From Escherichia coli (GTDB lineage: Bacteria > Pseudomonadota > Gammaproteobacteria > Enterobacterales > Enterobacteriaceae), in assembly GCF_017348835.2 (NCBI RefSeq), contig NZ_CP071375.1: a DNA stretch of 64,000 bases; one strand, written 5' to 3'. This document shows positions 6,083 through 43,709 of this stretch, in pieces. Positions within the stretch are counted from its first letter, which is position 1; each line of letters opens with the position of its first letter. The notes under the pieces were generated by a model. It made no database searches. It was not told the DNA's origin and saw only the letters and a program-made list of their open reading frames with translations. The translations under genes were made by a program, and so were the position numbers.

Positions 6083-6129
6083 TATCTTCCCTTATTTTAA
6101 CTGCTATAGACATCTTCGTCGAAAAAGGA

Positions 6130-10172: not shown

Positions 10173-10257
10173 TAAATTTAACTACCTCTTCATTTCCAAA
10201 ATGCAAATGTAAAAATCAACATTTCAAACTTAATATTCATTCAATAAATGATAAAAA

Positions 10258-11022
10258 CTAAAGTGAGAAACCATCATCAACGATAATGTTCTGACCTGTA
10301 ACATATCTTGATTGATCTGACAGCAAGAAAACAATGGATCCCGTCATTTCATTAACATCCAGCATTCCAGTTCCATGAGTGTTTTTTCTATATGCCTCAC
10401 AAAATTCAGCTGGTTGGTTGTCAAAAATTCCACCGGGGCTTACTGAATTAATGCGGAAGTCACTATTATTGACATACGCTACAATATACTTATTCAAATG
10501 TAATAATGCTGACTTGATTGCCGCATATTCTACAGGCATTGTCATTTGAGTATTGTCATAAATATTGAATTTAGGAGCAATTACACCGTAAATGGATGAT
10601 ATATTAACCATCGAAACTGGCTTTTTTTGTCGCATAAAAAACTGTGCAGCTTGTTGGCTAATCAGGAAGGAGCTACCCAAGTGAAGCGATAAGTTTTCAT
10701 TGAAGCTGGCAAGCGTTACATCGAATAACTTACGACCATACGTTTTATTCCTGGGATAGGTTGCATTGACAATTCCATCAATGTCCTCAAGGCTGTTAAA
10801 AAAATCAGTGACAGATTGTTCATTGGTGACATCAACCTCAGCGTAGGTTATGTTCATGCCAGATGTTGCTACACCTTGTGCACTTAATTTATTCTTTATA
10901 TGGTTTATATCAAGATCGACAGCAATAACCTTTGAACCATTTGCAAGGCATGCCTTCGTCAGGCATGCGCCAAGCAGACCACCAGAACCAAAAATGACAA
11001 TATTTTTATTTTCCAGTATCAT
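10258..11022 (-). CDS. ptmA: Short-chain dehydrogenase/reductase, PtmA-like
   Basis: 254-aa ORF with SDR N-terminal glycine-rich motif (IVIFGSGGLLG); last gene of the legionaminic-acid-type block. Confidence 0.65.
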   Translation of the reverse strand: MILENKNIVIFGSGGLLGACLTKACLANGSKVIAVDLDINHIKNKLSAQGVATSGMNITYAEVDVTNEQSVTDFFNSLEDIDGIVNATYPRNKTYGRKLFDVTLASFNENLSLHLGSSFLISQQAAQFFMRQKKPVSMVNISSIYGVIAPKFNIYDNTQMTMPVEYAAIKSALLHLNKYIVAYVNNSDFRINSVSPGGIFDNQPAEFCEAYRKNTHGTGMLDVNEMTGSIVFLLSDQSRYVTGQNIIVDDGFSL

Positions 11023-11023
11023 T

Positions 11024-11725
11024 TTAATTACATTCCTTTTTCATCGTTAGAATGGTTTCAGCCATAAGAAAATCATAAATATCATCGATATCAACAGCTC
11101 TTTCCTTCGGAACTTCAACCGAAGTAACATTCCCTGAAAACAATCCAATATTATTCAGAATAAATTCGGGAGTTGAGACATAAACGACGGTAGTAATATC
11201 GAACACATCAGGACAGTCCTGACGTCTTGAGACATCCCCTTCTGGGCTAATTACTAACTCATTCAAGCCATTGCTGTTGATTTTGACCATATTAAAATAT
11301 GGACTACGTGATGCTGGCGTTACTGCGATACAGATATCTGCATCTGTTTGCATGCGTTTAGCAATGGCACGTTCAACATCCTGCACTTCTCGCAATGGAC
11401 TCGTGGCGGGAAGGCTGACAAATTGTCCAAATGCCCCGTAATGCTCAGTTACCCACTCAATAGCATGGCGCCACGCAAACCACTCAGGACTTTTATCACC
11501 AGAAAGTTCATCAGGTCTGTCAATGACAACAACATCTTTTAATTCTAATGCTTTTTGTTTAATGTCTGCGTCATCTGTGGAGACAAATACTTTATCAATT
11601 GATGGGGACAGTTGTGCAATCTCGATTGCATAGTGTAATAAAGGCTTTCCACATAACTCTTTTATGTTCTTCCCTGGCAGGCCTTTAGAGCCTCCGCGAG
11701 CAAATATAAAAGCATAATTTTTCAT
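11024..11725 (-). CDS. legF: CMP-nonulosonic acid synthetase (acylneuraminate cytidylyltransferase family; CMP-legionaminic acid synthetase-like)
   Basis: 233-aa ORF with N-terminus FIFARGGSKGLPGKNI, characteristic of NeuA/LegF cytidylyltransferases. Confidence 0.75.
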   Translation of the reverse strand: MKNYAFIFARGGSKGLPGKNIKELCGKPLLHYAIEIAQLSPSIDKVFVSTDDADIKQKALELKDVVVIDRPDELSGDKSPEWFAWRHAIEWVTEHYGAFGQFVSLPATSPLREVQDVERAIAKRMQTDADICIAVTPASRSPYFNMVKINSNGLNELVISPEGDVSRRQDCPDVFDITTVVYVSTPEFILNNIGLFSGNVTSVEVPKERAVDIDDIYDFLMAETILTMKKECN

Positions 11726-12688
11726 TTATTCTGCCAACTTTTTTATCCGATTAACTAATGCGATGGTTTTAACTGCATCAGTCAATTTGATGCATTGATT
11801 CTCGCGCCCATGTATATAGTTATCAAAATCTTTCAACATATCCAAATACATGGTGTTTTTATCGTATTGCGGTTCATTATAAATCAAACACTCATCTGAT
11901 TTATTAATTAATTTCACTTGATTATTGATCAAATCCCATTCTACCCGTCCATCTGTACCTAAGAAACTACATTTCCTGAACGCTTTTTTCTGTAGAAAAT
12001 CCAAATGAATATTGACAACGATTTCATCTTTTGAAATAGCAATAATATCTGCTATATCTTCAACATCGATATCAAGCACACCGGAATTTCGGACTGTAGC
12101 ATGGAGAACATCTAGCTCGCCAAAAAGCCAGCGTGTATAATCCAATTCATGGCTTAACTCCAGGAGAGCCCCACCACCCAAAGCTTTATTAGCTGAGACA
12201 CTTTCTTTATAGTTTTTACTAACACGCCAGTCCGGGAGATACTGTCCGATCTCGATAAAGGCGTTAAATATTCTGCCTGCTTTCTTCTCTTCTAAAACTC
12301 TTTTTAACGAAAGCGCAGAGGGCAAATAGCGCAAACAATACCCAACAGCGACTACCGAATTAAAACGCATTGATGCATCCAGTAATGCCTCTGCATCAGA
12401 CGTCGATACCGTAACAGGTTTCTCAATTAGAACAGGTATACCGGCTTTAATAAATGGTATGGCATGTCCAGCGTGTAACGTTGCTGGAGATGCTATAATA
12501 GCCATATCAACAATATCTAAGAGTTCATCTATGATATTTACTACCTGATCACAATCACTTATTTCACCATGAATTTTGCGTCCAGAGGCTGACATCGCAT
12601 AAACTTTGATACCGGGATAAACTTTTTTGAGATTGCGACGATGTCTGTCTGCAATATTACCTAATCCAATCACCGCAACTGCTTTCAT
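11726..12688 (-). CDS. ptmF: Gfo/Idh/MocA-family oxidoreductase, PtmF-like
   Basis: 320-aa ORF with N-terminal NAD-binding fold (MKAVAVIGLGNIADRH); sits between ptmE-like and legF-like genes as in Campylobacter-type leg clusters. Confidence 0.65.
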   Translation of the reverse strand: MKAVAVIGLGNIADRHRRNLKKVYPGIKVYAMSASGRKIHGEISDCDQVVNIIDELLDIVDMAIIASPATLHAGHAIPFIKAGIPVLIEKPVTVSTSDAEALLDASMRFNSVVAVGYCLRYLPSALSLKRVLEEKKAGRIFNAFIEIGQYLPDWRVSKNYKESVSANKALGGGALLELSHELDYTRWLFGELDVLHATVRNSGVLDIDVEDIADIIAISKDEIVVNIHLDFLQKKAFRKCSFLGTDGRVEWDLINNQVKLINKSDECLIYNEPQYDKNTMYLDMLKDFDNYIHGRENQCIKLTDAVKTIALVNRIKKLAE

Positions 12689-13746
12689 TAGTCAAAACCT
12701 AGTGTAAAGTAATCTACCTGCGCCCTTTTGAAGTCATCCATTCTACCGATATCCAACCAGTACTCATGTATAGGGAACATAAGGATGTTTTCATTATTAT
12801 CCATATGCTCTTCAAGAAGAGTTGGCATATCAATACGATGATTTTTAGGCACTGCTTTGAAGATTTGTGGTGACACAACATAGATCCCTGCATTGACGAA
12901 AAATCGGTGTACAGGCTTCTCTTCCATCGAGATGATTTTATTTCCATCCCCTTTTATGACGCCATAGGGAATTTGATAATCATATTCGCGTACACACATA
13001 GTTGCGTCAGCTTTGCTTTCTATGTGGAATTTAATCAAACGCTCGTAATCAACATTGGTCAAGACGTCGCCATTTATCATGATGAGAGGATGTTCATCCG
13101 ATAAATCTTCAGGTAACAAACCTAAAGCACCGCCAGTGCCCAGCGGTTTTTCTTCATGTACATAGCGGATTTTTGAATCAAACCGCTCACCATCACCGAA
13201 ATGTTCTTTGATAATCTCAGGCATATAGTGAGTCGAGATATAGAAATTATTAAACCCAGCTTTAACAAAACTGCGAATTACGGTTTCTAATATTGGCTTA
13301 CCACCGATACAAAGCATGGGCTTTGGGCAGGAATCCGTTAATGGTTTTAATCTTGTTCCAAATCCGCCAGCCATGATAAACACAGGGTTAGGATATTTTT
13401 TCTTATTATTTACTGACTGGATAGTCTCCAGACCGATTACTTTACCATCGCGAAGGATAGGAACAGACAAAATCCCTTTTACTTTCATCAGCGTGTTTAA
13501 CTCGGCTGAAGAAACACTACTGGTCGCTGTGACTGGCTGAGTATTCATGACCTGTGAAGTTTTAGCCGAGAGATCCAGATTATTCAGCAATCCCCTTCTG
13601 ATGTCTCCATCAGTGATGACACCTAATAAATTATTTTCATTATCAACAACTAACGCGATACGTAGAGCTTCACGGTTAATAATTTCGAGCGCTTCACGCA
13701 GTGAGCTGTCCGGTCGGATCAGCACATTTTTCCAATGCTGCATCAT
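12688..13746 (-). CDS. ptmE: CBS-domain sugar-phosphate nucleotidyltransferase, PtmE-like (GlcNAc-1-P guanylyltransferase type)
   Basis: 352-aa ORF with N-terminal CBS pair (LLGVITDGDIRR) followed by a nucleotidyltransferase domain (FIMAGGFGTRLKPLT); this architecture is diagnostic of the GDP-GlcNAc route to legionaminic acid. Confidence 0.7.
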   Translation of the reverse strand: MMQHWKNVLIRPDSSLREALEIINREALRIALVVDNENNLLGVITDGDIRRGLLNNLDLSAKTSQVMNTQPVTATSSVSSAELNTLMKVKGILSVPILRDGKVIGLETIQSVNNKKKYPNPVFIMAGGFGTRLKPLTDSCPKPMLCIGGKPILETVIRSFVKAGFNNFYISTHYMPEIIKEHFGDGERFDSKIRYVHEEKPLGTGGALGLLPEDLSDEHPLIMINGDVLTNVDYERLIKFHIESKADATMCVREYDYQIPYGVIKGDGNKIISMEEKPVHRFFVNAGIYVVSPQIFKAVPKNHRIDMPTLLEEHMDNNENILMFPIHEYWLDIGRMDDFKRAQVDYFTLGFD

Positions 13747-13766
13747 GAATTACCTTTTGTAAGACA

Positions 13767-14402
13767 CTATTTGATAACCGATCTTGCCGGATAGCAAACT
13801 TGCCCATTATCTAACGACTGCACTAATACTGCGCCAGCACCCACCATTGAATTACTGCCTAGTATCATCCCAGGGATTATTGTGGAACCTGCCCCCACAA
13901 AAACTGATTCCCCCGTTTTAACCTGCCCGCACAACACCGCACCGGGTCCAATAAAGCTGTGATTTCCTATCTGGCAGTCATGTTCAATAATCGCACGGGT
14001 ATTAATTATTGAATGGCTACCAATTACTACCCCAGGATTGACTATCGTTCCTGACAGAACTTGGGCCCCGTTCATAATATGGGCATGTGCGGAAATTAAT
14101 GCATCTTTAGCAATTACACTGGCAAATTGATATCCATGGCGAAGATAGGATTCCGTAACATTCTTTCTTACCGAAGATCGCGGAACCATACCGATGCCAT
14201 TAACTAATTCAATGTCTTTATTTGAGTACTGAAAAATATCGTCATCAGTGCGGAATACTTTGATTCCAGAAAAAATTGTTCTTGCGGGGACATCATGCGG
14301 ACTCACAACAGCGATAACTTCCCGCATGTTTGAATTCAGAATGTCCAGTAGGACACTGGCATGGCCGCCACCACCAATAAGAACAACAGGTTTGCTATTC
14401 AA
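13767..14402 (-). CDS. legH: Hexapeptide-repeat N-acetyltransferase (LegH/NeuD/PglD family)
   Basis: 211-aa ORF with N-terminal VLIGGGGHASV and C-terminal left-handed beta-helix repeats; overlaps legI start by 8 nt. Confidence 0.7.
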   Translation of the reverse strand: MNSKPVVLIGGGGHASVLLDILNSNMREVIAVVSPHDVPARTIFSGIKVFRTDDDIFQYSNKDIELVNGIGMVPRSSVRKNVTESYLRHGYQFASVIAKDALISAHAHIMNGAQVLSGTIVNPGVVIGSHSIINTRAIIEHDCQIGNHSFIGPGAVLCGQVKTGESVFVGAGSTIIPGMILGSNSMVGAGAVLVQSLDNGQVCYPARSVIK

Positions 14403-15468
14403 TAATCAGATCTCCCGGCAAATATTCTTTTGTTGATATTTTTTCCAGGATATCCCAGTAGCTATAAGGCGACATCCCGTTTCCAGGTCTCTTGATTGTA
14501 ACATTCGACGCGGTAAAAGTTTCCCCCGCTCGAATTTTCTGCGCAGCCACCAGACTTTTTCTCGCAACCGACTTGTTTTTAATTTCTGAAACGGTTGGTG
14601 CTTTGACCTTATTTCCTAGCGCTATTTCTATTTGCCTGATCGCTTTTACCATTGCGGCCAGTTCATCAGGTTCAAGTGAAGCTTTATGATCCGGACCTTC
14701 CATATTTTTATCTAGCGTGAAATGTTTCTCAATAATCACAGCCCCTCTGGCAACGGCTGCTACAGGGATAGCTATCCCCTCGCTGTGATCGGAATAGCCC
14801 GCAGGAAGGTCAAAAGCTTCTCGTAAGGAATCCATTGCTCTCAAGTTAATTTCACCCATTGGCGCAGGATATTCAGTCGTACAGTGAAGAATTGTCACTT
14901 TCTCTTTCAGCAACTTCTGACCTTCACGTGTTGCATAGGCTCTTTCAAAGGCTTCGATACAAGGTTTTTCATCCTTTGAACTGATATATCCGAATGCGAT
15001 AACACCCAAAGCAGCTTCTATTTCAGAAAGAGTGGCCATCCCCGTTGAAACAATAATATCGCAACCTGTTCTGGCATGTTCCAGAACCAACGGTGCATTG
15101 GTGAGCTCACCAGAAGGCAATTTCAAGCGTTTGATTCCAAGATCATTCACCAGGAAATCAAGGCTTTCTGAATCAAAGGCCGTGGAAAGAAATTCTATCC
15201 CCAATGCTTCACAATGCTTAACCAATGCATGATGCGCTTCCCATGACAGTTCAAGACGGCTTAGCATCGCTAGTTGCGATTCCTGTCGTTGAGTATTCGC
15301 CACCTGATAATCGGCTTGCTTTGCCTGTTCGGTCACCAGGTTTTTCGCTTTAAACGTCTGGAACTTAACAATATCAGCCCCGGCCTTATAAGCAGCATCA
15401 ACAAGTTCAAAAGCCAGTTTTTCGTCGCCGTTGTGATTAACACCGGCTTCAGCAATGATAAGCGTCAT
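14395..15468 (-). CDS. legI: Nonulosonic acid synthase (NeuB family; legionaminic acid synthase-like)
   Basis: 357-aa ORF, MTLIIAEAGVNHNGD N-terminus, TIM-barrel NeuB signature and C-terminal antifreeze-like/SAF domain. Confidence 0.85.
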   Translation of the reverse strand: MTLIIAEAGVNHNGDEKLAFELVDAAYKAGADIVKFQTFKAKNLVTEQAKQADYQVANTQRQESQLAMLSRLELSWEAHHALVKHCEALGIEFLSTAFDSESLDFLVNDLGIKRLKLPSGELTNAPLVLEHARTGCDIIVSTGMATLSEIEAALGVIAFGYISSKDEKPCIEAFERAYATREGQKLLKEKVTILHCTTEYPAPMGEINLRAMDSLREAFDLPAGYSDHSEGIAIPVAAVARGAVIIEKHFTLDKNMEGPDHKASLEPDELAAMVKAIRQIEIALGNKVKAPTVSEIKNKSVARKSLVAAQKIRAGETFTASNVTIKRPGNGMSPYSYWDILEKISTKEYLPGDLIIE

Positions 15469-15474
15469 ATAGTT

Positions 15475-16644
15475 TCACTTGATGTCGTAGAACGTCTTGC
15501 CGGGAACAAAATGCATGGACTTAATCATCTCAATGATTTTCGAACTTGCATCACCCTGGCCATAAGGATTCGCAATGTCTTCATCGCGGTTTTTATAACT
15601 GCGCGTAACCGCAATTCTTAATGCCTTCGCAATCGACTCCGTCGTTGCAGGGCAATTCAACACGCTTCGGGCAGCCAACCGGCCTTTTTGCCTTTCGCCA
15701 ATGTTAACGGTAGGAACATCAAACGCAGGAACTTCAATAATCCCGCTGGAGGAATTACCTACCACTGCCGCTGCATACTTCACAGCACTGAGATAGCGCA
15801 CCTGTCCTAAAGAAGGAATCGCCAGCACACGCTCGGGTTGTCTGGCAGCATAGGCTTCGAGCAAGGGAATGATCTTTCTGCCACCATCATCTGCGTTGGG
15901 ATAGGTCAGGATGACCTGATACTCCGGGTACTCATCAAGCGCCGCTAACAACGCGTTAAAACTTGCTTCTGCAGGCTCGTCACCCAGAGTGACAGGATGA
16001 TACGTCACCAGTAAGAATGGTTTTCTAAGCGGGAATTTCAGCGAGACACCTAATTCCTCAACAGACATAAATTGTCCGCGCTTGAGATGATCCAGCCCAA
16101 TTGCGCCAACATTGACTACGCGAGAAGGATCTTCCCCTAGCTGGATAACACGATTCCGATAGGCCTCTGTTGAAGTTCCATGTAAATAACTCAGTTTAGT
16201 AATCGCGTGTCTGATCGCATCGTCGTAGGCACCCTCCGTAATTTCCCCACCATGTAGATGCAGAATGGGAATACGGAGAATCATCGCCGTCTGTGCCGCT
16301 GCAAGAGCTTCAAAACGGTCCCCGAGTATCACTAAAATATCCGGCTTTAATCTGTTCAGGGCATCAGCAAAACCCAATATCCCCAGCCCCATGCTTTTTG
16401 CAGTCCCTACTGCCGTATCCGAAGAAAGCAATATATCAATCTTCTCATCAATTGAAAAACCGTCTTTCTCAATCTGCTGCCAGGTATTTCCAAACTCGGG
16501 CGAGAGATGCATACCACTAACGAGAAGCTGAAGTTCCAGCTCTTTGTCATCCTGGATATCTTTCAACAGCCAGTAGAGCAAGCCATATTCAGCTCGCGTG
16601 CCGGTAAATACCGCAACTTTACGTTTTGCTGACCCCATTACCAT
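15475..16644 (-). CDS. legG: Hydrolysing NDP-sugar 2-epimerase (NeuC/LegG family)
   Basis: 389-aa ORF with NeuC-like N-terminus (KVAVFTGTRAEYGLL); start codon overlaps legC stop by 1 nt (translational coupling). Confidence 0.8.
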   Translation of the reverse strand: MVMGSAKRKVAVFTGTRAEYGLLYWLLKDIQDDKELELQLLVSGMHLSPEFGNTWQQIEKDGFSIDEKIDILLSSDTAVGTAKSMGLGILGFADALNRLKPDILVILGDRFEALAAAQTAMILRIPILHLHGGEITEGAYDDAIRHAITKLSYLHGTSTEAYRNRVIQLGEDPSRVVNVGAIGLDHLKRGQFMSVEELGVSLKFPLRKPFLLVTYHPVTLGDEPAEASFNALLAALDEYPEYQVILTYPNADDGGRKIIPLLEAYAARQPERVLAIPSLGQVRYLSAVKYAAAVVGNSSSGIIEVPAFDVPTVNIGERQKGRLAARSVLNCPATTESIAKALRIAVTRSYKNRDEDIANPYGQGDASSKIIEMIKSMHFVPGKTFYDIK

Positions 16645-17786
16645 TACTCCATTGGAGAGCTAGGTATGTTGATCAGGCGAGCTTCAATCTGTTCAGAGTT
16701 CTTGAGATCATCACGCATTGCATGTTCAAACATTGGCAGACGGTGCATCAATTTCCAGATTGGGCGAACCATTACTTTGGCTTCATTCATTTGTACCAGC
16801 ATTGCATCACGGGCATCCATGTTTTCACAAATGATGGCATTCAGCCAGAAGTTTGACTGAGCATATTCAGGTTCTTTCACGAACCTGAACTCTGACCCGG
16901 CAAAAAATGCCTCATAGCGCTGAGCCAACTCACGTTTTTGTTTCAGGAACGAATCAAGGCGTTCCATCTGCCCACACCCAAGCGCAGCGTTGAGGTTTGG
17001 CATACGATAGTTGAAACCTGGTTCATCATGATAAAACTCGTAGGGATGCGGTACTTTTGCTGTCGTAGTGACATGTTTCGCACGAACACCCGCTTCTGAC
17101 GAGCGACAGAGGACCATTCCGCCACCACCGGTCGTAATAATTTTATTGCCGTTAAAGCTTAACGCTCCATAGTCACCGAGCGTACCGGTGTGTTTACCCT
17201 TGTAGAAAGAGCCCAGACTTTCAGCCGCATCTTCAACAAGAACGATGTGCCACTTCTGGCAAACGGTAATAAGCTCATCCAGCTCAACCGGATGACCAAA
17301 GGTATGCATAGGCACCACAGCACGTACAACCTGCCGTGTTTTACGGTGCACACATCCTTTTTCTGTCAGCTCGGTATTTTCAGATAACCAATTATCAAGT
17401 GCGACCGGGCACAGCCCCATACTCACCGGAGAGACATCGGTAAACACCGGCTCAGCTCCCAGATGATAAAGCGCATTGCAGGTTGCAATGAAGGTCAGTG
17501 CCTGAGTGATAACAAGATCACCTCGCTTAACACCTGCCAGGTATAACGCTGCGCTTAACGCGGCTGTTCCGTTAACCGTTGCAACCGCTCTCGCCGTTCC
17601 GGTGTAAGATTCCATTTTACGTTCGAAATCATCGACATATTTACCGACGCTCGACACGAAAGTACTGTCCAGAGTATCCAGAACATATTTTTTTTCGTTG
17701 CCATTAAACACTGGCGCATGCAAAGGAATAAATTCATCCGTTTTGTATACGTCGCGAACAAATTCGATAATTGATTTGATATTCAT
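16644..17786 (-). CDS. legC: PLP-dependent aminotransferase, DegT/DnrJ/EryC1 family (LegC-like)
   Basis: 380-aa ORF of the sugar-aminotransferase family; placed between dehydratase and 2-epimerase genes. Confidence 0.8.
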   Translation of the reverse strand: MNIKSIIEFVRDVYKTDEFIPLHAPVFNGNEKKYVLDTLDSTFVSSVGKYVDDFERKMESYTGTARAVATVNGTAALSAALYLAGVKRGDLVITQALTFIATCNALYHLGAEPVFTDVSPVSMGLCPVALDNWLSENTELTEKGCVHRKTRQVVRAVVPMHTFGHPVELDELITVCQKWHIVLVEDAAESLGSFYKGKHTGTLGDYGALSFNGNKIITTGGGGMVLCRSSEAGVRAKHVTTTAKVPHPYEFYHDEPGFNYRMPNLNAALGCGQMERLDSFLKQKRELAQRYEAFFAGSEFRFVKEPEYAQSNFWLNAIICENMDARDAMLVQMNEAKVMVRPIWKLMHRLPMFEHAMRDDLKNSEQIEARLINIPSSPME

Positions 17787-17801
17787 TCGGGGATGCCTTG
17801 C

Positions 17802-19016
17802 TTACATTTTGCTGTCGAGGTATTTACCTGTTTCTTTATGTCTGAAGTCAGGGATCATTTCAAAAAACAGTTTTACAATATCGTCTTTATTCCATTCCAG
17901 AGATGCTTTCATCTCTTCGATACGTTCTTCAAAGTGGGCCAGAAGCGCAGGGTCATATAAAGGTTCATTCTTGATAATGCCCAGATTGTTAAAACGCTCC
18001 ATATCAAGCGTTTCATTATCGGTGAAGAACTCCTCGAAATCTTTCTCACCTGTCGTATCACTTGAGGTAAACAAACATGGCCATTTACCTTGTGCTGGCA
18101 GGGTTTTAGCAAGCTCACGAGCTTCGTCTTCGGTTTCACAAAGATGAGGCTCATAACCACGTTGCTTAAGGTAGAGAACCGCAATATCGGCAAAAGAAAT
18201 GAGGTGTAATGCTTCACTCAGTTTCGGGAAGAAGATGTCACGATTATCACCAAAAATACATGACATCAGACAGAGCTCACCTGATTCCTGAGGGGTGACG
18301 AAATAACGCTTGATATCATTCGGTGCAACCAGGGGTTGCTGCTTGTGGAGGCGTTGATTGAACCCATGCAGAAGGGAGCCATCAGAAAAGGCTACGTTCG
18401 CGAAACGTGCAGTAGAGATGGCGATTTGTTCACTTTTACGCATCAGGAACATTTCCATAATACGCTTAGAAGCGCCCATCATATTTACCGGATTCGCGGC
18501 CTTGTCGGTCGATACGCAGAAGAATTTCTTAACGCCAGCAGCAATAGACTGCTCAATGGTTTTGTCAGTATTGAGAATATTGACTTCAATCATGCGCATC
18601 AGGGTAAACGGATCTTTCTCACTGCGAACATGTTTCAGGGCAGATAAATTCAGAACGTAATCATATTTACCGTCAGCTTTGATAAAAGCGTCGTATTCTA
18701 CAGAGCCGATATCAAGCGCGAACGTCTGGAAATCACCAGCAATATAACCGAAGGAACTGCGTATATCACGAACCAACTCAACCATGTTGTTTTCGCTAAT
18801 ATCGACAACATGCAGTTTCTGAGGATTGCGTTTAAATATTTCTTTTACAACAGCCTGACCAATAGAGCCAGCACCGCCAAGTACAAGGAAGCGTGATTCG
18901 GAAACGATTTTTTTTAATTCTTTTTCATTTTCAGAAACATCATCACTGAATAATTCTTTATTACGCCCAATCAATTGGAGGATATTATACATTTCGAGAT
19001 CCAGTTTGTTACTCAT
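17802..19016 (-). CDS. legB: NDP-GlcNAc 4,6-dehydratase, extended SDR (LegB-like)
   Basis: 404-aa ORF with Rossmann motif VLGGAGSIGQAV; first gene after the JUMPstart/ops element, i.e. promoter-proximal gene of the O-antigen operon. Confidence 0.7.
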   Translation of the reverse strand: MSNKLDLEMYNILQLIGRNKELFSDDVSENEKELKKIVSESRFLVLGGAGSIGQAVVKEIFKRNPQKLHVVDISENNMVELVRDIRSSFGYIAGDFQTFALDIGSVEYDAFIKADGKYDYVLNLSALKHVRSEKDPFTLMRMIEVNILNTDKTIEQSIAAGVKKFFCVSTDKAANPVNMMGASKRIMEMFLMRKSEQIAISTARFANVAFSDGSLLHGFNQRLHKQQPLVAPNDIKRYFVTPQESGELCLMSCIFGDNRDIFFPKLSEALHLISFADIAVLYLKQRGYEPHLCETEDEARELAKTLPAQGKWPCLFTSSDTTGEKDFEEFFTDNETLDMERFNNLGIIKNEPLYDPALLAHFEERIEEMKASLEWNKDDIVKLFFEMIPDFRHKETGKYLDSKM

Positions 19017-21911: not shown

Positions 21912-23132
21912 CTATAAAGCCTGTAACAAGCTGGCGAGTTCTCGATTAATCACCTGCTGGTTAAAATCGTGTTCGACTTTTTCGCGCGCACGTTTGACAA
22001 CCGGAGCCAGTTCGTCAGTGTCCAGTTGGCTAAATGCCGCCAGACGTTGCGCCAGTGCGCGAGCATCGTTCTCAGGCACCAGCCAGCCGGATTTATCGGC
22101 CTCCACCAGTTCCGGTATTCCGCTATGCAGAGTAGAAACCACCGGAATGCCGACCGCCATCGCTTCCATCAGCGCTACCGGAATGCCTTCCATATCGCCA
22201 TCCGCGCCCGTTACCGATGGCAACAGGAAGACATCCGCGTCGTCGAGCATCGCTTTCACTTCATGGCTCGGTTTAAAGCCCGGCATCTCCACCACATCTT
22301 CCAGTTGATATTGTTCGATGAGGGTGCGCAGGCGTCTTTCCCACGGGCCAATGCCGAGGATGCGATAGCGAAATGCCACGCCCTGCTCTTTCAACTGCCG
22401 ACAGGCTTCGATCGCCACATGCAGGCCTTTTTTCTCGGTTAAGCGTGCGACGGAAATGATTTCCAGCGGCGTTGCGGGCGCTTTCACCGGACGCGGGCTA
22501 AAGCGCGTCATGTCCACGCCCATACGCGATACGGCGATTTTTTCTCTGGGGCAGCCCATTTTTTGCAGCCTTCCTGCCCACAGATCGCTTATCGGTAACA
22601 TCAGGTCGCCACGGCGAAACAGTTGTTGATATTCGGGAGTGTAGTGGTTGAGCACTTCCCGACTGGAGATATCAATACCGTGGAAGATGGTGGCAATTTT
22701 GCCGCGAATGACACCCAGTTCGCGTAGTTTTGCTGCGGTTACCCCCGCCGGGCCAAAATGAGCGATAAAGACATCGGCATGAAACGGTGTTGCGACCTGG
22801 CCGCAAATGGCAGACAAAATCAGGTTTCGCGACTCAGCACCATAGCGTTTGAGGTTGAGCGCCTGCCAGGTATTTTTACGATGAATGCCGTGTAAGGTCT
22901 GGCTGGCGCGGTGGCGCAGTTTCGCAACTTTGCCTTGTGGTTCGTCCTGTAACCAGCGGGTTCTGGCGGCAAGGTTGTATTTCGTCCATGCCGCGTGGGT
23001 ATTCTGGGTGTCGCCTTTTTGCAGCGCGACAATCTCCACTTCAAAGCCCATATCAATAAACGCGGTAATTTGATTGAGGACGAAGGTTTCCGACGACAGC
23101 GGAAATTTCAGTAAAAAGAAGCCGACCTTCAT
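21912..23132 (-). CDS. wcaL: Colanic acid glycosyltransferase WcaL
   Basis: 406-aa GT4 ORF, recognised and in conserved order. Confidence 0.9.
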
Positions 23133-24409
23133 TTCACCTCCCCGATGCGTTCAAGCACAGATTGCACCATCTGCATTCCTGTATGACGCTCACGACTGAC
23201 AGCTTCGTTAAGTCGTGCGTTCAGCGCCGGAAGCTGGCCTAAGGTATCCGCAACCATCGCTTGCAGGCTGCCGTCCAGTAAATGACGGATATCAATTGCC
23301 ATCTCCGGTAGTCCCAGCTGCTGCATGATCCCGGCGGATTTATGTTCATAGTTGATGGCAATCGCCGGAGTAGCAAAGTTCATTGAGATAATAGCGGAGT
23401 GCAGACGCGTACCAACGGTGAGTTCACAGGCACCGAGAATTTTGCCCATTTCCAGATCGTTAAGTTCATCCATCACTACGTGGTAACGGGCAGGATCGCT
23501 GATATGCTGGCGCAGGTTGAGCGCCACCATGCGGTCGTCTTTGTTATAACTGTCGATGCCCGTACAGGTGGAGAGCGCAATCACCTGATAGCCTTCGTCG
23601 AGAATGCGATTGACCACCCCGGCAAAGGCTTTTTCATACGCTTGCTGAGTGGTGCCGAGACGTTTGTCGAACGGTGCCAGTTCGCGCAGGGTAATTGCCA
23701 CCGTTTTCTGTTGTGCGGCAACGTCCAGCCAGTGTTGGACGGCATAGCTGGCGGTGAAATCTTCGGTGTGGTGATCGACCAGCCACGCGGTATCGACGCC
23801 ATGTTCAACTTTTGCAGTGGTGATATTGCTGCGTTTCATCAGATCAAGACTGACCGATTCGCGCAGGATCAGCGCGTCACAGTGACCAAAAACGTAGTTC
23901 GCCAGTTGGTTAAATTGCTCATCCTGGAAGGGGCCGACGCTGTGACCAATCATAAACAGCGGCTTTTTCGCCATAAACGTGCAAAGCGCATGTTCAAACT
24001 GCGGCACGCCATAGAGATCGACAAAAAACGATCCGCCGACCTGGATAATGGCGTCGTAACCTGACAGCAGGCGCACGAAGTCGGTGAATCCCTGGGCGAT
24101 GGCGATATTACGCAGCTTGCCAGTGTCGGTGACGCGCGAGAGCAGTACCTGGTGCTGATAGCGGCGACGGAGGACTTTTTTAACGCGCCCGACAACGCCC
24201 GCCGCGCTGTTGTGTTGTTTCATTTGAAGGAACAGCGGATCACCCATTACCGGGCGGTTGAGCAGCCAGGAAGAACTGACCGGATAGCGGCTCATCACGT
24301 CCACTTCGGCTTGTGGATTGAGGATGTTGATGGCATCAAGTAAGCCGCGCAGGATGGCGCTGTCGCCACGATTGCCGCAAGTGTGGTTGCCCAGAATAAG
24401 TAATTTCAT
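23129..24409 (-). CDS. wcaK: Colanic acid pyruvyltransferase WcaK
   Basis: 426-aa ORF recognised as WcaK; overlaps wcaL start by 4 nt. Confidence 0.9.
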   Translation of the reverse strand: MKLLILGNHTCGNRGDSAILRGLLDAINILNPQAEVDVMSRYPVSSSWLLNRPVMGDPLFLQMKQHNSAAGVVGRVKKVLRRRYQHQVLLSRVTDTGKLRNIAIAQGFTDFVRLLSGYDAIIQVGGSFFVDLYGVPQFEHALCTFMAKKPLFMIGHSVGPFQDEQFNQLANYVFGHCDALILRESVSLDLMKRSNITTAKVEHGVDTAWLVDHHTEDFTASYAVQHWLDVAAQQKTVAITLRELAPFDKRLGTTQQAYEKAFAGVVNRILDEGYQVIALSTCTGIDSYNKDDRMVALNLRQHISDPARYHVVMDELNDLEMGKILGACELTVGTRLHSAIISMNFATPAIAINYEHKSAGIMQQLGLPEMAIDIRHLLDGSLQAMVADTLGQLPALNARLNEAVSRERHTGMQMVQSVLERIGEVK

Positions 24410-24468
24410 TTTTTCCTCATAAATTTGATGCCAGGTGAGGCTGTGTTTGTTGTGTCCGTTGCCGCTTT

Positions 24469-24850
24469 TTGCCTGATGCGACGCTGGCGCGTCTTATCAG
24501 GCCTACAGGTCCCGAGCACAGAACCGTAGGACGGATAAGGCGTTCACGCCGCATCCGGCATTCAGTGCCTGATGCGACGCTGACGCGTCTTATCAGGCCT
24601 ACAGGTCCCGAGCACAGAACCGTAAGACGGATAAGGCATTCACGCCGCATCCGGCATTCAGTGCCTGATGCGACGCTGACGCGTCTTATCAGGCCTACAA
24701 GATCCAAGCACAGAACCGTAGGATGGATAAGGCGTTCACGCCGCATCCGGCATTCAGTGCCTGATGCGACGCTGGCGCGTCTTATCAGGCCTACAAGACC
24801 CGAGCACAGAACCGTAGGCCGGAATAAGGCGTTTTACGCTGCACCCGGCA
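24469..24850. repeat. REP/BIME array (about four tandem units of paired, inverted REP sequences)
   Basis: Repeated gcctgatgcgacgct(g/a)(g/a)cgcgtcttatcaggcctaca alternating with the inverted gtaggacggataaggcgttcacgccgcatccggca, with a period of roughly 100 bp, in the wzxC-wcaK spacer. Confidence 0.85.
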
Positions 24851-24877
24851 ACCGTTGTCGGAACCGAAAACAACAAC

Positions 24878-26356
24878 TCACCCCGCCCGTAAAAGCATTT
24901 TCATTTTTTCGCTGCGACAAAACTGACGCTTCACTTCCACCACCAGCGGATGGCGCGACAGCACAATCATCACTACAAACGCCAGCACGCCCGCGGCTAT
25001 TTGCACCGCCAGCAGCATCCCCAGCGCCAGTTGCCCTTTCAGCACAATGCCCAGCGCATAACTGACCACCAGCGTCGGCAGCGATAGGTAAAACGGCAGC
25101 CACAAACTCAGGATGTACTGGCGATAACTGGAACCAAGAACCGGTTTAATCATCACGAAGTAACTCAGAATGGTGTTGATAATCTGCACCAGCAGGAAGC
25201 CAAGCGTGACGCCGATTGCGCCCGCCATCTGCCCACCAATAACAATCGCCGGAATAAACAGAAATGTTTTGAATACGTTGAATTTAAAGCTGATATCGAC
25301 CCGCGCTTTCGCCATCAGCAGCGAACCAATCGGGTTACCCACCGAACGCAGCAGACCCACCACACACAGCAATTGCAGCACCGGAATAATGCTGTTCCAC
25401 TTCTCACCAAAGACCAGCGGTACAAAGTTATTCGACACCACCATCAGCCCCAGCAGCGCCGGAAAGTTGATAATCCCCACCACCGACAGCAGCTTGTAGA
25501 AGTTGACGCGCAGCTTTTCGGTGTCGTCCTGAATTTTGGCAAACGCCGGAAACAACACGCGCGTGATGATTGGGTTCAGCTTCATCGGAGGCACAACGGC
25601 CACGTTGTACGCCAAGTTGTATCCCCCTGCCACGCCCGCGCCGAGAATACGCGCCAGCACCAGCGTTGAAAGGTTGGTATTGAGATAGTTGATGATGCTG
25701 TCCGCCGTCAGCCAGGCACCAAAGCGTAAGTTTGGTGCCACCGACGCCAGCGAGAAATGCAGACCGGGGCGATAAATTTTTCGACCAAAGTAGCCAAACA
25801 GCAGCGTTCTTACCGCACTATTGACCAGATAACCGAGGATCGCGGTCATCGCCAGCGGCCAGAAATGGGCGCTAACCACCGTAAAAGTGAAGCCCGCCAG
25901 CACCGCGCTGGTTTCGATCATGCCGATTTTGTTGAACTCCAGTTCCTTTTGCATCAACGCGCGGAACTGCTGCCCGTGGGGGATCACCACAAACGCCAGC
26001 GACAATGTTTTAATCAACGGTGCCAGGTCCGGGTTATTCAGCACGTCGCCGATGACATCACTCAACAGAAACACCGCCACGCACACCACGATCCCCAGTC
26101 CGACGTTCAGCCAGTACAGCGTGGTGAGTTCAAGGTGGCTGATTTCTTTTCGCTGAATAATCGAGTTAGCGATACCGAAGTCAGAAAGCGTATCTGCCAG
26201 CGCGATAATCACCAGCGACACAGTCAGCAGGCCGAACTGGTGGTTGTCGATAATCCGCGCCAGCACGGTCATCTGCACCAGCCCGAGACCGATGATGATC
26301 ACCGTAGCAATCGCCGACCACTTCGCGCCGCTGATGGTTTTTTCACGTAAGCTCAT
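24878..26356 (-). CDS. wzxC: Colanic acid repeat-unit flippase WzxC
   Basis: 492-aa polytopic membrane ORF recognised as WzxC. Confidence 0.9.
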   Translation of the reverse strand: MSLREKTISGAKWSAIATVIIIGLGLVQMTVLARIIDNHQFGLLTVSLVIIALADTLSDFGIANSIIQRKEISHLELTTLYWLNVGLGIVVCVAVFLLSDVIGDVLNNPDLAPLIKTLSLAFVVIPHGQQFRALMQKELEFNKIGMIETSAVLAGFTFTVVSAHFWPLAMTAILGYLVNSAVRTLLFGYFGRKIYRPGLHFSLASVAPNLRFGAWLTADSIINYLNTNLSTLVLARILGAGVAGGYNLAYNVAVVPPMKLNPIITRVLFPAFAKIQDDTEKLRVNFYKLLSVVGIINFPALLGLMVVSNNFVPLVFGEKWNSIIPVLQLLCVVGLLRSVGNPIGSLLMAKARVDISFKFNVFKTFLFIPAIVIGGQMAGAIGVTLGFLLVQIINTILSYFVMIKPVLGSSYRQYILSLWLPFYLSLPTLVVSYALGIVLKGQLALGMLLAVQIAAGVLAFVVMIVLSRHPLVVEVKRQFCRSEKMKMLLRAG

Positions 26357-26357
26357 A

Positions 26358-27752
26358 TCAATATGCCGCTTTGTTAACGAAGCCTTTGAATACCGTCAGG
26401 AAAACGATTTTGATATCGAACCAGACGCTCCATTCGCGGATGTACTCAAGGTCGAACTCGACGCGTTTTTCCATTTTCTCCAGCGTGTCGGTTTCGCCGC
26501 GCCAGCCGTTAATCTGCGCCCAGCCGGTAATGCCCGGTTTCACTTTATGGCGCAGCATGTAGCCTTCAATGAGCTGGCGATACTGTTCGTTATGCGCCAC
26601 CGCGTGCGGACGTGGACCCACAATCGACATCCCCCCGGTCAGCACATTGATAAACTGCGGCAGTTCATCCAGCGAGGTGCGGCGCAGAAAGTTCCCCACT
26701 TTGGTGACGCGCGGATCGTTCTGCGTCGCCTGGGTCACCACTTTGTCGTTCTCCATCACTTTCATGGAACGGAACTTCCACACTTTGATCGGCTTGCCAT
26801 CCATGCCGTAGCGAGTCTGGCGGAAAATAACCGGCCCAGGTGAACTGAGTTTCACCGCCAGCGCAATGCAGCACAGCACCGGGGAGATCAGCAGCAGGAT
26901 AAGCGTCGCCAGCACAATGTCTTCCGCACGTTTGAGCAGGCGGTTAACCCCGGAAAGCGGCGTGTCGTAAAGCGGCACCACCGGAACGCCGTTCATCTCT
27001 TCAAGACGTGAATGGAGAATGTTGAAGGTAAAGACATCGGGGATCAGCAGCACCGAACAGGTGGTGTCCGCCAATTGATGGACCAGTTTTTTCACTCGCG
27101 CGCCGTCGCACATTTGCATCGCGATATAGACGTTATGAATCTTGCCCGCTTTCGCGTCCTCGACCAGCTGTTGCAGATTACCCGCCCAGTCGTTAGAAAC
27201 GCCGCCCGGTTTCGGGTCGTGGTAAACGCCCACCACTTCAAACCCTAACCACGGCTGGTTACGGAAGCTCTCCATCAGCATTTGCCCGGCGGCTAAATCC
27301 CCCGCCACCGCGACCATGCGCTTGTTATAGCCATGATTACGCAGCCAGCCCGCCCCAATGCGAATACATGAACGGCAAACCACCAGTCCGATGCTGGTCA
27401 GCCCATACCACGCCAGCCAGATTTTCAGTTGCGTGTCGAAATCATTGTTGAACGCCACCAGTCCGGCGCTGAAAATCACGCTTAAGGTCCAGTTTTGTAG
27501 CAACAGGGCAAATTCTGTCGCTGCCCGAACACCGCGCCATGAGCGATAAAAATCGGTGATGCCACCCAGCATCTGGAACACCACCAGCGTAATCAGCGCC
27601 ACCAACAGGTGCATGTAGAGGAATGACAGGCCGCTCACTTCGCAAACCAGCCATAGTCCGGCAAACATGATGGTGATATCTGAAAAGCGTTGCACCATAG
27701 AGATTAACGATGCATTGGTTTTCGCTCGCTCGCGCTTTTTTAGATTTGTCAT
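26358..27752 (-). CDS. wcaJ: Undecaprenyl-phosphate glucose-1-phosphate transferase WcaJ
   Basis: 464-aa ORF with polyprenyl-phosphate hexose-1-P transferase C-terminus (LDELPQF...GPRP). Confidence 0.9.
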   Translation of the reverse strand: MTNLKKRERAKTNASLISMVQRFSDITIMFAGLWLVCEVSGLSFLYMHLLVALITLVVFQMLGGITDFYRSWRGVRAATEFALLLQNWTLSVIFSAGLVAFNNDFDTQLKIWLAWYGLTSIGLVVCRSCIRIGAGWLRNHGYNKRMVAVAGDLAAGQMLMESFRNQPWLGFEVVGVYHDPKPGGVSNDWAGNLQQLVEDAKAGKIHNVYIAMQMCDGARVKKLVHQLADTTCSVLLIPDVFTFNILHSRLEEMNGVPVVPLYDTPLSGVNRLLKRAEDIVLATLILLLISPVLCCIALAVKLSSPGPVIFRQTRYGMDGKPIKVWKFRSMKVMENDKVVTQATQNDPRVTKVGNFLRRTSLDELPQFINVLTGGMSIVGPRPHAVAHNEQYRQLIEGYMLRHKVKPGITGWAQINGWRGETDTLEKMEKRVEFDLEYIREWSVWFDIKIVFLTVFKGFVNKAAY

Positions 27753-29265: not shown

Positions 29266-29368
29266 TTGCCTGATGCGACGCTGCCGCGTCTTATCAGGCC
29301 TACAAAACCGAACCGTAGGTCGGATAAGACGTTCACGCCGCATCCGACAAACAGCGCCTGATGCGACG
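29266..29368. repeat. REP/BIME element
   Basis: gcctgatgcgacgctgccgcgtcttatcaggcctac followed by the inverted gtaggtcggataagacgttcacgccgcatccgac, in the cpsB-cpsG spacer. Confidence 0.8.
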
Positions 29369-39713: not shown

Positions 39714-39755
39714 TGCTTGCCGGATGCGGCGTGAGCGCCTTATCCGGCCTACGGG
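39714..39755. repeat. REP element
   Basis: gcttgccggatgcggcgtgagcgccttatccggcctacgg in the wzc-wcaA spacer. Confidence 0.75.
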
Positions 39756-43530: not shown

Positions 43531-43709
43531 TGTTTATTTATCACTTTGGCAGAGTTATTATCCTGTGCACTATTAATAGCAATGTCGCCATGCACATTTA
43601 CCTTGCAGTTAATTGAATAAAAATTTAACTGGCATCAGTCCTAAAAAAATTGATTTCATCCGCAGGCTATTGACAGAATAATTCAGACTGGTCTTTCAGG
43701 CATCCAGAC

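Follow-up and report, generated by a model that had tools for sequence, protein, structure and literature searches.

The window analysed here, a 64-kb stretch of Escherichia coli DNA that is 100% identical in sequence to E. coli PE164, contains the colanic acid genes from wza to wcaM, all on the same strand and with tight junctions. A tandem array of REP sequences lies in the 468-bp spacer between wzxC, which precedes the array in the direction of transcription (stop codon TGA at 24880-24878), and wcaK, which follows it; the wider neighbours are wcaJ (upstream) and wcaL (downstream). The features of the spacer and its flanks are as follows.

24878-26356, minus strand: wzxC, colanic acid repeat-unit flippase (ORF list; NCBIfam NF007773, 835 bits; PGAP annotation of the identical PE164 record)
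24410-24877, minus strand: wzxC-wcaK intercistronic spacer, 468 bp
24470-24850, no strand: BIME-2 array of four 96-97-bp units (Tandem Repeats Finder, REP consensus matches, unit layout and identities, Rfam RF02564 matches)
24470-24506, plus strand: Z2 REP no. 1, 37/37 to consensus; RNA hairpin of -21.9 kcal/mol in mRNA sense
24526-24560, minus strand: Y REP no. 1, 34/35; hairpin of -14.8 kcal/mol
24566-24602, plus strand: Z2 REP no. 2, 36/37
24622-24656, minus strand: Y REP no. 2; hairpin of -13.0 kcal/mol
24662-24698, plus strand: Z2 REP no. 3, 36/37
24718-24752, minus strand: Y REP no. 3; hairpin of -12.9 kcal/mol
24758-24794, plus strand: Z2 REP no. 4, 37/37
24814-24850, minus strand: Y REP no. 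4, degenerate (1-nt insertion and several substitutions), still folding at -13.7 kcal/mol
24415-24418, minus strand: wcaK Shine-Dalgarno GAGG in UUAUGAGGAAAAAAUG, read from the sequence
23129-24409, minus strand: wcaK, colanic acid pyruvyl transferase (NCBIfam TIGR04006, 935 bits; PGAP annotation)

The array thus placed by an earlier note on this DNA, a REP/BIME array between wcaK and wzxC of the colanic acid operon, is correctly identified. The same note had listed further REP or BIME copies in the cpsG-cpsB and wcaA-wzc spacers and after dgcE, and all three are located, together with the ops element of the operon.

29267-29368, cpsG-cpsB spacer: second BIME-2-like element of the operon, with Z2 (plus), Y (minus) and a partial Z2 (plus)
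39718-39752, plus strand, wcaA-wzc spacer: single Y REP
43709-43720, minus strand: ops element GGCGGTAGCGTG, the RfaH loading site, upstream of wza (single exact match in the window, 0.08 expected by chance)
53359-53442: Z2 (plus) and Y (minus) pair between the convergent genes dgcE (end at 53342) and alkA (53451-54299)

The colanic acid operon uses JUMPStart-RfaH antitermination (PMC9976346); its wca transcription unit spans ~24 kb and is highly inducible. The array sits in the transcribed wzxC-wcaK spacer of this RcsAB/RfaH-controlled operon. A consensus scan of 24000-25300 returned no sigma-70-like promoter or intrinsic terminator on either strand, and an internal promoter or terminator in the spacer was rejected on this basis.

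Four Z2/Y REP pairs form a BIME-2 array

Tandem Repeats Finder places the array at 24470-24850 with a period of 96, 3.9 copies, 92% matches, 0% indels and a score of 639. Alignment of the units agrees with the earlier description of about four near-identical units of ~100 bp: units 1-3 share 89-93/96 positions pairwise, and unit 4, 97 nt long, is more diverged, with an identity of 84-87/98 to the others. REPs were located by blastn-short matching to Z2 and Y consensus sequences, and the family definition agrees with the published one (PMC3333891). All four Z2 REPs lie on the plus strand and match the consensus at 97-100% (36-37/37; E values of 1e-14 to 1e-16). The first Y REP is matched over its full length, the second and third at 96-100% over 28-29 of 35 nt, and only the fourth is degenerate, so that the two inverted REPs per unit previously described are found throughout. 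Read on the plus strand, each unit consists of a Z2 REP (plus), a 19-nt tail-to-tail linker, a Y REP (minus) and a 5-nt head-to-head linker (TTCAG), and the REP strands alternate +,-,+,-,+,-,+,- along the array, giving eight hairpins in total.

BIME-2 elements are defined by z2 and y REPs, tandem copies, a short S linker and strain-variable copy number (PMC3333891). Z2 and Y REPs in alternating orientation, short linkers and strain-variable tandem copies are all found here, and the four Z2/Y pairs, with their eight palindromic units, constitute a BIME-2 array, the linkers being compared with the S and s, l or r motifs by length (5 and 19 nt). The array is an ordinary, previously described kind of E. 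coli palindromic repeat with textbook BIME-2 architecture. BIME-1 elements (RIB/RIP; Y and Z1 REPs, an L linker, IHF-bound) are likewise extragenic inverted REP pairs; they differ in being single-copy and in having Z1 and a long L linker with an IHF site, as opposed to the full-length Z2 REPs and 5- and 19-nt linkers of the present array. The Z1 consensus matches only as 10-nt fragments, all inside Z2 matches, and the IHF consensus (WATCAANNNNTTR) has four matches in the 64-kb window, none of them within 24410-24877, which excludes a BIME-1 assignment. IHF binding is a property of the long L linker of BIME-1 (PMC3333891) and does not apply here because the spacer has no IHF site. The proposal that the array may bind IHF or gyrase therefore fails for IHF, whereas gyrase is the relevant partner for a BIME-2 element.

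Copy number across strains and the REP144 locus

We counted the units in 59 complete E. coli genomes, a spread sample drawn from ~4,650 with both flanks. The spacer contains 0, 1, 2, 3, 4, 5 and 6 units in 4, 14, 11, 5, 11, 5 and 1 genomes, respectively; seven of the 59 carry an unrelated BoxC-like palindrome instead, and one has a single unit with most of the Z2 REP deleted. Spacer lengths in the sample are 71, 145, 161/167, 179, 275, 371, 467, 564 and 663 bp. The array had been described as expanded, which holds relative to K-12 (two units) or O157:H7 (one unit) but not in general: with four units in 11 of the 59 genomes, and five or six in 6 more, the present form is a common allele and not an unusual expansion. 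Misassembly is unlikely, since thousands of complete genomes show this architecture.

The order of the units and their linker variants is reshuffled from strain to strain, and both haplotypes of the flank beside the wzxC stop codon (AACAACAAC vs AACAACCAT) are common to empty and filled alleles. Unequal recombination or slippage between near-identical units is the most likely source of copy-number change, perhaps with help from the REP-associated transposase TnpA-REP. The persistence of alleles with 0-6 units, along with an unrelated spacer, speaks against a dosage function under strong selection.

The locus itself is already known. REPs in the wcaK-wzxC, cpsG-cpsB and wcaA-wzc spacers were published in 2011, together with a REP-including indel between O157 strains in the wcaK-wzxC spacer, for which four REPs were stated in EC95-42 (PMC3158064), so both the REPs and their strain-to-strain indels at this locus precede our analysis. 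K-12 MG1655 carries at 2118467-2118652, between the tandem gene pair wzxC->wcaK (Harris et al. supplement), the element REP144, which shares with the present array its locus, flanks, Z2/Y unit and terminal degenerate Y REP. REP144 has two units in a 275-bp spacer, as against four units in 468 bp, and the order of linker variants differs (AAGACCC, AGGTCCC in REP144; AGGTCCC, AGGTCCC, AAGATCC, AAGACCC in the window). The element named REP144 in K-12 is represented in the PE164 lineage by this four-unit allele.

In E. coli B-type strains (161-bp allele), and in at least 15 other species, the wzxC-wcaK junction holds BoxC-like repeats (CCCTCTCCC...GGGAGAGGG...GGGGTGAGGG). These repeats of Enterobacteriaceae also form very stable hairpins there but are a sequence family unrelated to the BIME-2 array. 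The name BoxC for the palindrome in this junction is provisional and given by its motif.

Our reading of the locus as a whole, a copy-number-polymorphic BIME-2 array that is an allele of REP144 and would, by analogy, have a stabilizer/attenuator effect, has in our estimate a probability of about 0.85. As it stands the array matters little, being a member of the most abundant E. coli repeat family at a published locus. For typing and assembly, the spacer behaves as a VNTR whose length classes are 71, 179, 275, 371, 467, 564 and 663 bp.

Predicted RNA structure and possible effects on wca mRNA

In mRNA sense the spacer folds at -235 kcal/mol, compared with -178 +/- 7 kcal/mol in shuffled sequences (z = -8.0; 0/100 shuffles as stable), and the individual REP hairpins range from -13 to -22 kcal/mol. 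In every allele from 0 to 6 units, the predicted minimum free energy structure pairs two segments outside the array.

24863-24886, minus strand: 5' half (mRNA sense) of the predicted bracketing hairpin, GGGGUGAGUUGUUGUUUUCGG, taking in the wzxC stop codon
24431-24465, minus strand: 3' half of the predicted bracketing hairpin, ...ACAACAAACACAGCCUCACC, with CUCACC at 24439-24434

The 71-nt empty allele is predicted to form this simple bracketing hairpin at -24.7 kcal/mol. The folding predictions suggest a short intercistronic hairpin, retained in empty alleles, with the BIME array in its apical loop. The first REP reached by RNA polymerase is the degenerate Y REP no. 4, which starts 27 nt past the wzxC stop codon; a ribosome-stalling REP, which lies no more than 15 nt after the stop (criterion quoted in PMC12306157), was rejected on this distance.

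An action of the array as an mRNA stabilizer or partial terminator of wca, which the earlier note offered as no more than a possibility, is plausible and in keeping with what has been published about elements of this kind. The closest precedent is REP325, a 6-unit BIME-2 inside yjdMN that stabilizes the upstream mRNA and partly attenuates readthrough. When this operon-internal element with its 12 hairpins is deleted, the downstream gene rises ~8-10-fold and the upstream mRNA declines. Attenuation by REP325 is partly bicyclomycin-sensitive, only with the long array, and REP fragments of 2-4 hairpins exhibit no Rho dependence. Genome-wide, tandem gene pairs with an intervening REP have a higher upstream/downstream expression ratio, and REPs serve as protective 3' structures on Rho-terminated transcripts (PMC6061677). 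The wca array has the placement of a REP325-type regulator: its hairpins lie in the same-strand operon transcript, 3' of a cistron and between co-oriented genes, and the spacer lacks promoter and terminator consensus sequences. By analogy, the eight hairpins in the wca mRNA would form a very stable structure that blocks 3'->5' exonucleases, and the upstream wza...wzxC segment of the transcript would therefore be protected. The array would also modestly reduce the transcript reaching wcaK-wcaL-wcaM, an attenuation expected to be weaker than at REP325 because RfaH-modified RNA polymerase resists Rho. As DNA, the array is likely to be bound and cleaved by gyrase. The net effect of the array is probably small.

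It is possible, though on balance unlikely, that the array is instead neutral selfish or hitch-hiking DNA whose copy number drifts without measurable consequence for wca expression, tolerated because this junction is one of the few in the operon without translational coupling. The coexistence in E. coli of alleles with 0-6 units, a deleted unit and a BoxC-like spacer is consistent with this reading, as is a junction of only 0-41 nt in 76 of 114 other Enterobacteriaceae, where the operon works without such an element. Polarity should moreover be blunted by RfaH antitermination, and basal counts in K-12 do not drop across the spacer: uninduced mean counts are ~36 for wzxC and ~91 for wcaK, the downstream gene being not lower than the upstream one and both near background (Harris et al. 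supplement, with a column meaning of DESeq type that we infer). For the stabilizer/attenuator effect these counts are uninformative or speak mildly against it. The only Rho-binding peak recorded beside REP144 is on the antisense strand, abuts the element (Harris et al. supplement) and says nothing about the wca mRNA. Against neutrality, REP325, the best-studied comparable array, has large local effects, the genome-wide bias of REP-containing tandem gene pairs is toward upstream expression, and an mRNA structure this stable (z = -8) is unlikely to be wholly inert to exonucleases.

A primary role at the DNA level is improbable, even though the array is a BIME-2 by composition. In such a role it would serve as a strong gyrase site that works independently of transcription (or as a polymerase I or HU cruciform site), and would relieve supercoiling in the wca transcription unit or form a topological barrier. 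BIME-2 elements are significantly enriched in gyrase cleavage sites, with y REPs favoured and a signal that rises when transcription is blocked, but only a subset of them is cleaved (PMC6379681), and the empty alleles indicate that the site is dispensable. The supplements of Sutormin et al. (PMC6379681), a set that may be incomplete, contain no mention of wcaK or wzxC.

We give similarly little weight to the array as a recombination substrate, whose repeats would mark, and perhaps promote, junctions for exchange of the O-antigen region, with copy number as a by-product. Comparing two O157 strains, Iguchi et al. saw sequence similarity change sharply right within the wcaK-wzxC spacer and proposed that REPs take part in exchange of the O-antigen locus, a proposal based on few cases and called speculative by its authors (PMC3158064). 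The shuffled unit order and linker variants, and the flank haplotypes common to empty and filled alleles, point in the same direction; such a role would in any case be compatible with the main explanation.

A broader reading is decidedly speculative: the wzxC-wcaK junction might be a selected slot for structured RNA, with the BIME-2 unit number (0-6) as a heritable, strain-specific rheostat for the wcaK-wcaL-wcaM transcript. Across Enterobacteriaceae, unrelated palindromic repeat families would have come to fill the slot repeatedly, with Y/Z2 REPs in Escherichia and Citrobacter and BoxC-like repeats in Enterobacter, Lelliottia, Kosakonia, Pluralibacter and E. coli B. If this were true, unit number would set pyruvylation and completion of colanic acid repeat units relative to export, and attenuation would be stronger or weaker according to how RfaH and Rho compete at long hairpin arrays. 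The alleles provide a natural series, in an RfaH-protected operon, against which to judge the recent proposal that REP arrays act in 3' UTRs as regulators that can be tuned, and could tell whether antitermination overrides REP-mediated attenuation.

Three plus-strand segments (24529-24599, 24625-24695 and 24721-24791) match Rfam family RF02564 (naRNA4/CssrE) at 72.9, 71.6 and 64.8 bits, above the gathering score of 59.5 bits, as would be expected if the units encoded naRNA4-like nucleoid-associated RNAs acting with HU to condense the chromosome, as originally proposed (PMC4550694). This is very improbable. The matches above threshold are antisense to the operon, with no promoter-like site nearby, and the mRNA (minus) strand scores only 42-49 bits, under the gathering score. 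The model was built from one REP325 unit, a Y/Z2 BIME-2 (PMC4550694), and in effect profiles any Y/Z2 pair; in a 2026 re-examination REP325/naRNA4 had no effect on nucleoid volume or REP-REP contacts. With its matches antisense and the proposed function of the family contradicted for the founding member, naRNA4 was rejected as an explanation.

The repeat also generates two long ORFs.

24417-24746, minus strand: repeat-generated ORF of 109 aa, not a gene (no Pfam match; unannotated in PE164)
24469-25065, plus strand: repeat-generated ORF of 198 aa running antisense into wzxC, not a gene (unannotated in PE164)

That either the sense or the antisense ORF is a real gene is practically untenable, even with the 109-aa ORF terminating at the wcaK Shine-Dalgarno: neither reaches any Pfam threshold (the 198-aa ORF has only a sub-threshold match, E = 0.063) or is annotated by PGAP in the identical PE164 record, both stay open across the repeat only because the 96-nt unit equals 32 codons, alleles that have 0-3 units, or the frame-breaking 97-nt units of other strains, lack them or carry shortened or frame-shifted versions, and the ATG of the 109-aa ORF lies inside a REP stem without a ribosome-binding site. 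The earlier note had rightly called both spurious. For annotation, the two ORFs are best treated as artefacts of a 32-codon repeat and the Rfam naRNA4 matches as BIME-2 units.

Comparison with other operon-internal REP elements

The stabilizer/attenuator reading leans on REP325 (yjdM-yjdN, source of naRNA1-6), which resembles the present element in being a Y/Z2 BIME-2 tandem array between co-oriented genes of an operon. REP325 has six units and 12 hairpins, compared with four units and eight hairpins in the wzxC-wcaK array, whose orientation relative to transcription is the opposite; the wca operon is RfaH-antiterminated, and yjdMN is not known to be. The analogy may not transfer, given the inverted array, the lack of Rho dependence in fragments of 2-4 hairpins and the expected suppression of Rho by RfaH. 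Intercistronic REPs at malE-malF and hisJ-hisQ, reportedly described as mRNA stabilizers by Newbury in 1987 and Stern in 1988, are said to stop 3'->5' exonucleases, to the benefit of the upstream cistron. These elements and the wzxC-wcaK array alike place hairpins in a transcribed intercistronic spacer; malE-malF and hisJ-hisQ have 1-3 REPs, whereas wzxC-wcaK has a copy-number-polymorphic tandem array of eight.

Identity and context of the array

Tandem Repeats Finder resolves 24470-24850 into a tandem repeat with a period of 96 bp (3.9 copies, 92% matches, no indels, score 639), and matching to the consensus sequences of the three E. coli REP types reveals a strict alternation of Z2 and Y REPs along it. 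The array lies between wzxC and wcaK in the colanic-acid (wca) operon, all genes of which are on the minus strand; NCBIfam equivalog models support each of the four genes listed (835-992 bits).

Features of the locus (window coordinates)
21912-23132, minus strand: wcaL (NCBIfam equivalog)
23129-24409, minus strand: wcaK (NCBIfam equivalog)
24410-24877: wzxC-wcaK spacer, 468 bp
Starts at 24470, 24566, 24662 and 24758, plus strand: Z2 REPs, each 36-37/37 to consensus
24526-24560, 24622-24656 and 24718-24752, minus strand: Y REPs matching the consensus
24814-24850, minus strand: fourth Y REP, degenerate
24878-26356, minus strand: wzxC (NCBIfam equivalog)
26358-27752, minus strand: wcaJ (NCBIfam equivalog)
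43709-43720, minus strand: ops element GGCGGTAGCGTG, upstream of wza

Aligned as the earlier note had proposed, units 1-3 are mutually identical at 89-93 of 96 positions, and unit 4 is 97 nt long and more diverged. The two REPs inside one unit are arranged tail-to-tail across a 19-nt linker, and those of neighbouring units head-to-head across a 5-nt linker (TTCAG). Individual REPs are predicted to self-fold into hairpins of -13 to -22 kcal/mol, and the entire spacer in mRNA sense to reach -235 kcal/mol, compared with -178 +/- 7 in shuffles (z = -8.0). Repeat analysis, consensus matches and fold together bear out, far beyond chance and in the same place, the earlier description of about four near-identical units of about 100 bp with two inverted REPs each.

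BIME-1 elements pair z1 with y REPs, occur singly and have a long L linker, often with an IHF site; BIME-2 elements pair z2 with y REPs, are repeated several times in tandem and have a short S linker, and as a stated family property their copy number at one locus differs among strains (Ton-Hoang et al., PMC3333891). Judged by its sequence, the window element is a BIME-2 in every respect. A BIME-1 assignment is rejected, as a full Z1 and the long linker are absent and the spacer contains no IHF consensus; of the two partners suggested for such arrays, IHF and gyrase, only gyrase therefore remains. A subset of BIME-2 elements is enriched in gyrase cleavage sites, with y REPs favoured (PMC6379681; its supplements, as far as searched, do not mention the wzxC-wcaK locus). 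Three matches to Rfam RF02564 (naRNA4) exceed the gathering score, all on the plus strand, antisense to the wca operon; scores on the mRNA strand stay under the threshold. Since this model was built on one Y/Z2 unit of REP325, the BIME-2 between yjdM and yjdN (PMC4550694), the matches restate the BIME-2 identity of the units.

Iguchi et al. 2011 reported REPs in the wcaK-wzxC, cpsG-cpsB and wcaA-wzc spacers, REP-including indels that distinguish O157 strains in the first of these spacers, and, in the text, four REPs in strain EC95-42; they also located a sequence-similarity jump in the wcaK-wzxC spacer and speculated that REPs participate in O-antigen locus exchange (PMC3158064). The K-12 element at this locus, REP144 (2118467-2118652), is listed for the tandem pair wzxC->wcaK (Harris et al. 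2026 supplement). Together with the known variability of BIME-2 elements, these records make the finding already known in kind and place; the array is real and had been read correctly except for IHF and the word "expanded".

The ops element agrees with the JUMPStart-RfaH antitermination described for the wca operon (PMC9976346), and no sigma-70-like promoter or intrinsic terminator was found in the spacer or its flanks, so the array forms a transcribed, internal segment of the long wca mRNA. The further REP copies that had been noted are confirmed: 29267-29368, between cpsG and cpsB, holds a Z2/Y/partial-Z2 element; 39718-39752, between wcaA and wzc, holds a single Y; and 53359-53442, immediately past dgcE and before the convergent alkA, holds a Z2/Y pair. 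The two long ORFs, 24417-24746 (minus strand) and 24469-25065 (plus strand), are present and, as the note held, artefacts. Both owe their open frame solely to the unit length of 96 nt, exactly 32 codons, and they are broken or shortened in alleles with 97-nt units or fewer units. They are rejected as genes on account of this frame, and because neither reaches a Pfam family threshold or is annotated by PGAP in the record of E. coli PE164 (NZ_CP114128.1), a pig isolate 100% identical to the window across the test stretch.

Elsewhere in the window, an O-antigen cluster lies downstream of galF (about 4100-19016), with wzx/wzy annotated as O108 family; its gene content (neuB, neuC, a LegC-family aminotransferase and fnlA) suggests an O antigen containing nonulosonic acid. 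PGAP annotates in PE164 a RelE/ParE-family toxin gene and an HTH antitoxin-like gene between asmA and yegH (45847-46465). This pair may be a strain-specific insertion, as K-12 is not known to have genes there. Three tandem Ibs-family type I toxin genes (ibsA and two paralogues) occupy 59373-60089, between mdtA and yegL.

Copy number and spacer states in E. coli

The two 500-bp flanks, joined into one query, were found in one place in 4,654 of 5,426 complete E. coli genomes. Spacer lengths, read from 59 full-length rows at even steps down the ranking, fall into discrete classes; one representative per class was sequence-checked, 167 bp excepted.

Spacer classes among the 59 sampled genomes
71 bp: no BIME, "empty" allele; 4/59
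145 bp: single unit, most of Z2 deleted; 1/59
161/167 bp: unrelated spacer with BoxC-like palindrome; 7/59, including a B-strain derivative
179 bp: 1 unit; 14/59, including all five sampled O157:H7 records
275 bp: 2 units; 11/59, including K-12
About 371 bp: 3 units; 5/59
About 467 bp: 4 units, the window's class; 11/59
About 564 bp: 5 units; 5/59
663 bp: 6 units; 1/59

This comparison across strains, which the earlier note had called for, gives a range of 0-6 units and shows that four units are a common allele of a VNTR-like locus, in counts that ignore kinship. The array is "expanded" only relative to K-12 (2 units) or O157:H7 (1 unit): four units occur in 11 of the 59 genomes, and five or six in 6 more. 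The order of linker variants changes from strain to strain, as expected under unequal exchange between units.

In the 145-bp allele of strain 12689 (L011:501-645), the Z2 of the single unit is mostly deleted and TGCCTGATGCGA is joined straight to GCACAG, showing decay as well as expansion at this locus. The 161-bp spacer of EC416 (L005:501-661) is REP-free and carries the BoxC-like palindrome CCCCTCGCCCCCTGGGGAGAGGGTTAGGGTGAGGGGG; its wcaK ribosome-binding context GAGGTCATA is unlike that of the window and as in other genera, with coding flanks still 96-98% identical to the window. The same length class occurs in NEBExpress/B-type and 5 other sampled genomes. Within E. coli the spacer thus takes at least three unrelated states. 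Neither 500-bp flank has a megablast match in 753 of the 5,426 genomes, and one genome, EC6, has a wcaK match at only 71.6% identity. In a sizeable minority of strains the 3' part of the wca cluster is therefore absent or strongly divergent.

The junction as a predicted hairpin and possible landing site

The 71-nt empty allele (L004:501-571) is predicted to form an imperfect hairpin of -24.7 kcal/mol, in which GGGGUGA (including the wzxC stop codon) and GUUGUUUU pair with AAAACAAC...CCUCACC. The corresponding arms in the window are 24863-24886 and 24431-24465. In every filled allele the BIME is predicted to sit in the apical loop of this pre-existing intercistronic hairpin, as does the lone Z2 of E. 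whittamii, and the outer stem is kept in the minimum-free-energy folds of alleles with 0-6 units; kinetically, long-range closure across a 400-nt insert is doubtful. The CCUCA of the 3' arm could alternatively pair with UGAGG in the wcaK Shine-Dalgarno region, a pairing that RNAfold draws in E. whittamii.

A scan of 100,044 species-representative genomes with a degenerate WcaK N-terminus pattern returned 119 loci, 114 with an identifiable wzxC-wcaK junction. The spacer has a median of 30 nt and stays below 50 nt in 76 of these loci, where it measures 0-41 nt, so that a tight junction is the usual state. The 38 longer spacers are mostly enlarged by highly stable palindromes from two unrelated families: seven hold REPs (Citrobacter, E. 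whittamii and E. coli) and 15 more hold BoxC-like CCCTCTCCC/GGGTGAGGG palindromes (carriers include Enterobacter, Lelliottia, Kosakonia, Pluralibacter, Buttiauxella and Pseudenterobacter), reaching 271 nt and a predicted -158 kcal/mol. The junction may thus be a recurrent landing site. Unrelated palindromes repeatedly filling it could reflect selection for structured RNA; alternatively, it could merely be one of the few operon junctions that tolerate insertion.

BIME composition differs at the same site in Escherichia sp. MOD1-EC7003, where the 300 nt examined upstream of wcaK are full of REPs (the wzxC end lies further out), among them Y REPs alternating with a shorter type, GTAGGCCGGATAAGCGTAAGCGCATCCGGCA, and one Z2 at the wcaK end. 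Enterobacterial wzxC-wcaK sequence also appears in assemblies of Aromatoleum evansii (421-bp contig, coverage 0.8) and Chryseobacterium sp. 18061 (799-kb contig), with WzxC at 80-83% protein identity to that of E. coli; the former is probably contamination and the latter probably a mislabelled assembly.

Possible function and comparison with REP325

Ribosome stalling by a REP is not expected, as the first REP begins 27 nt past the wzxC stop codon and PMC12306157 gives 15 nt as the limit. In K-12, an in vitro NusG-dependent Rho-binding peak (2118651-2118749, plus strand; approximately 24848-24947, plus strand, in the window) is antisense to wzxC and abuts REP144 by 1 nt (Harris et al. supplement); it might terminate antisense transcription entering the array. 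Basal K-12 counts, about 36 for wzxC and about 91 for wcaK (Harris et al. 2026 supplement, table columns inferred), are both near background and show no drop across the 2-unit element.

Genome-wide, tandem gene pairs separated by REPs have higher upstream/downstream expression ratios, and REPs are protective 3' structures of Rho-terminated transcripts (PMC6061677). Among experimentally studied elements, REP325, a BIME-2 of 6 units within the yjdMN operon, comes closest. When it is deleted, expression of the downstream gene increases about 8-10-fold and upstream mRNA declines. Its expression pattern is a ladder of species ending in hairpins, and partial sensitivity of the attenuation to bicyclomycin is confined to the full array and absent from fragments of 2-4 hairpins.

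With the identity, in-transcript position, strong RNA structure and copy-number polymorphism of the wca array established, we infer its function from this analogy. The eight hairpins would shield the wza...wzxC part of the transcript from 3' exonucleases and would somewhat reduce the transcript covering wcaK-wcaL-wcaM. A further reading, in which the number of units would tune wcaKLM strain by strain like a rheostat, competing with RfaH, and the junction would be under selection for structured RNA, seems to us improbable, at roughly one chance in eight. Any effect on the wca transcript is expected to be small, because RfaH-loaded polymerase resists Rho, because the alleles with 0-6 units persist, as does an unrelated spacer, and because the wca array is inverted, in the orientation opposite to that of REP325.
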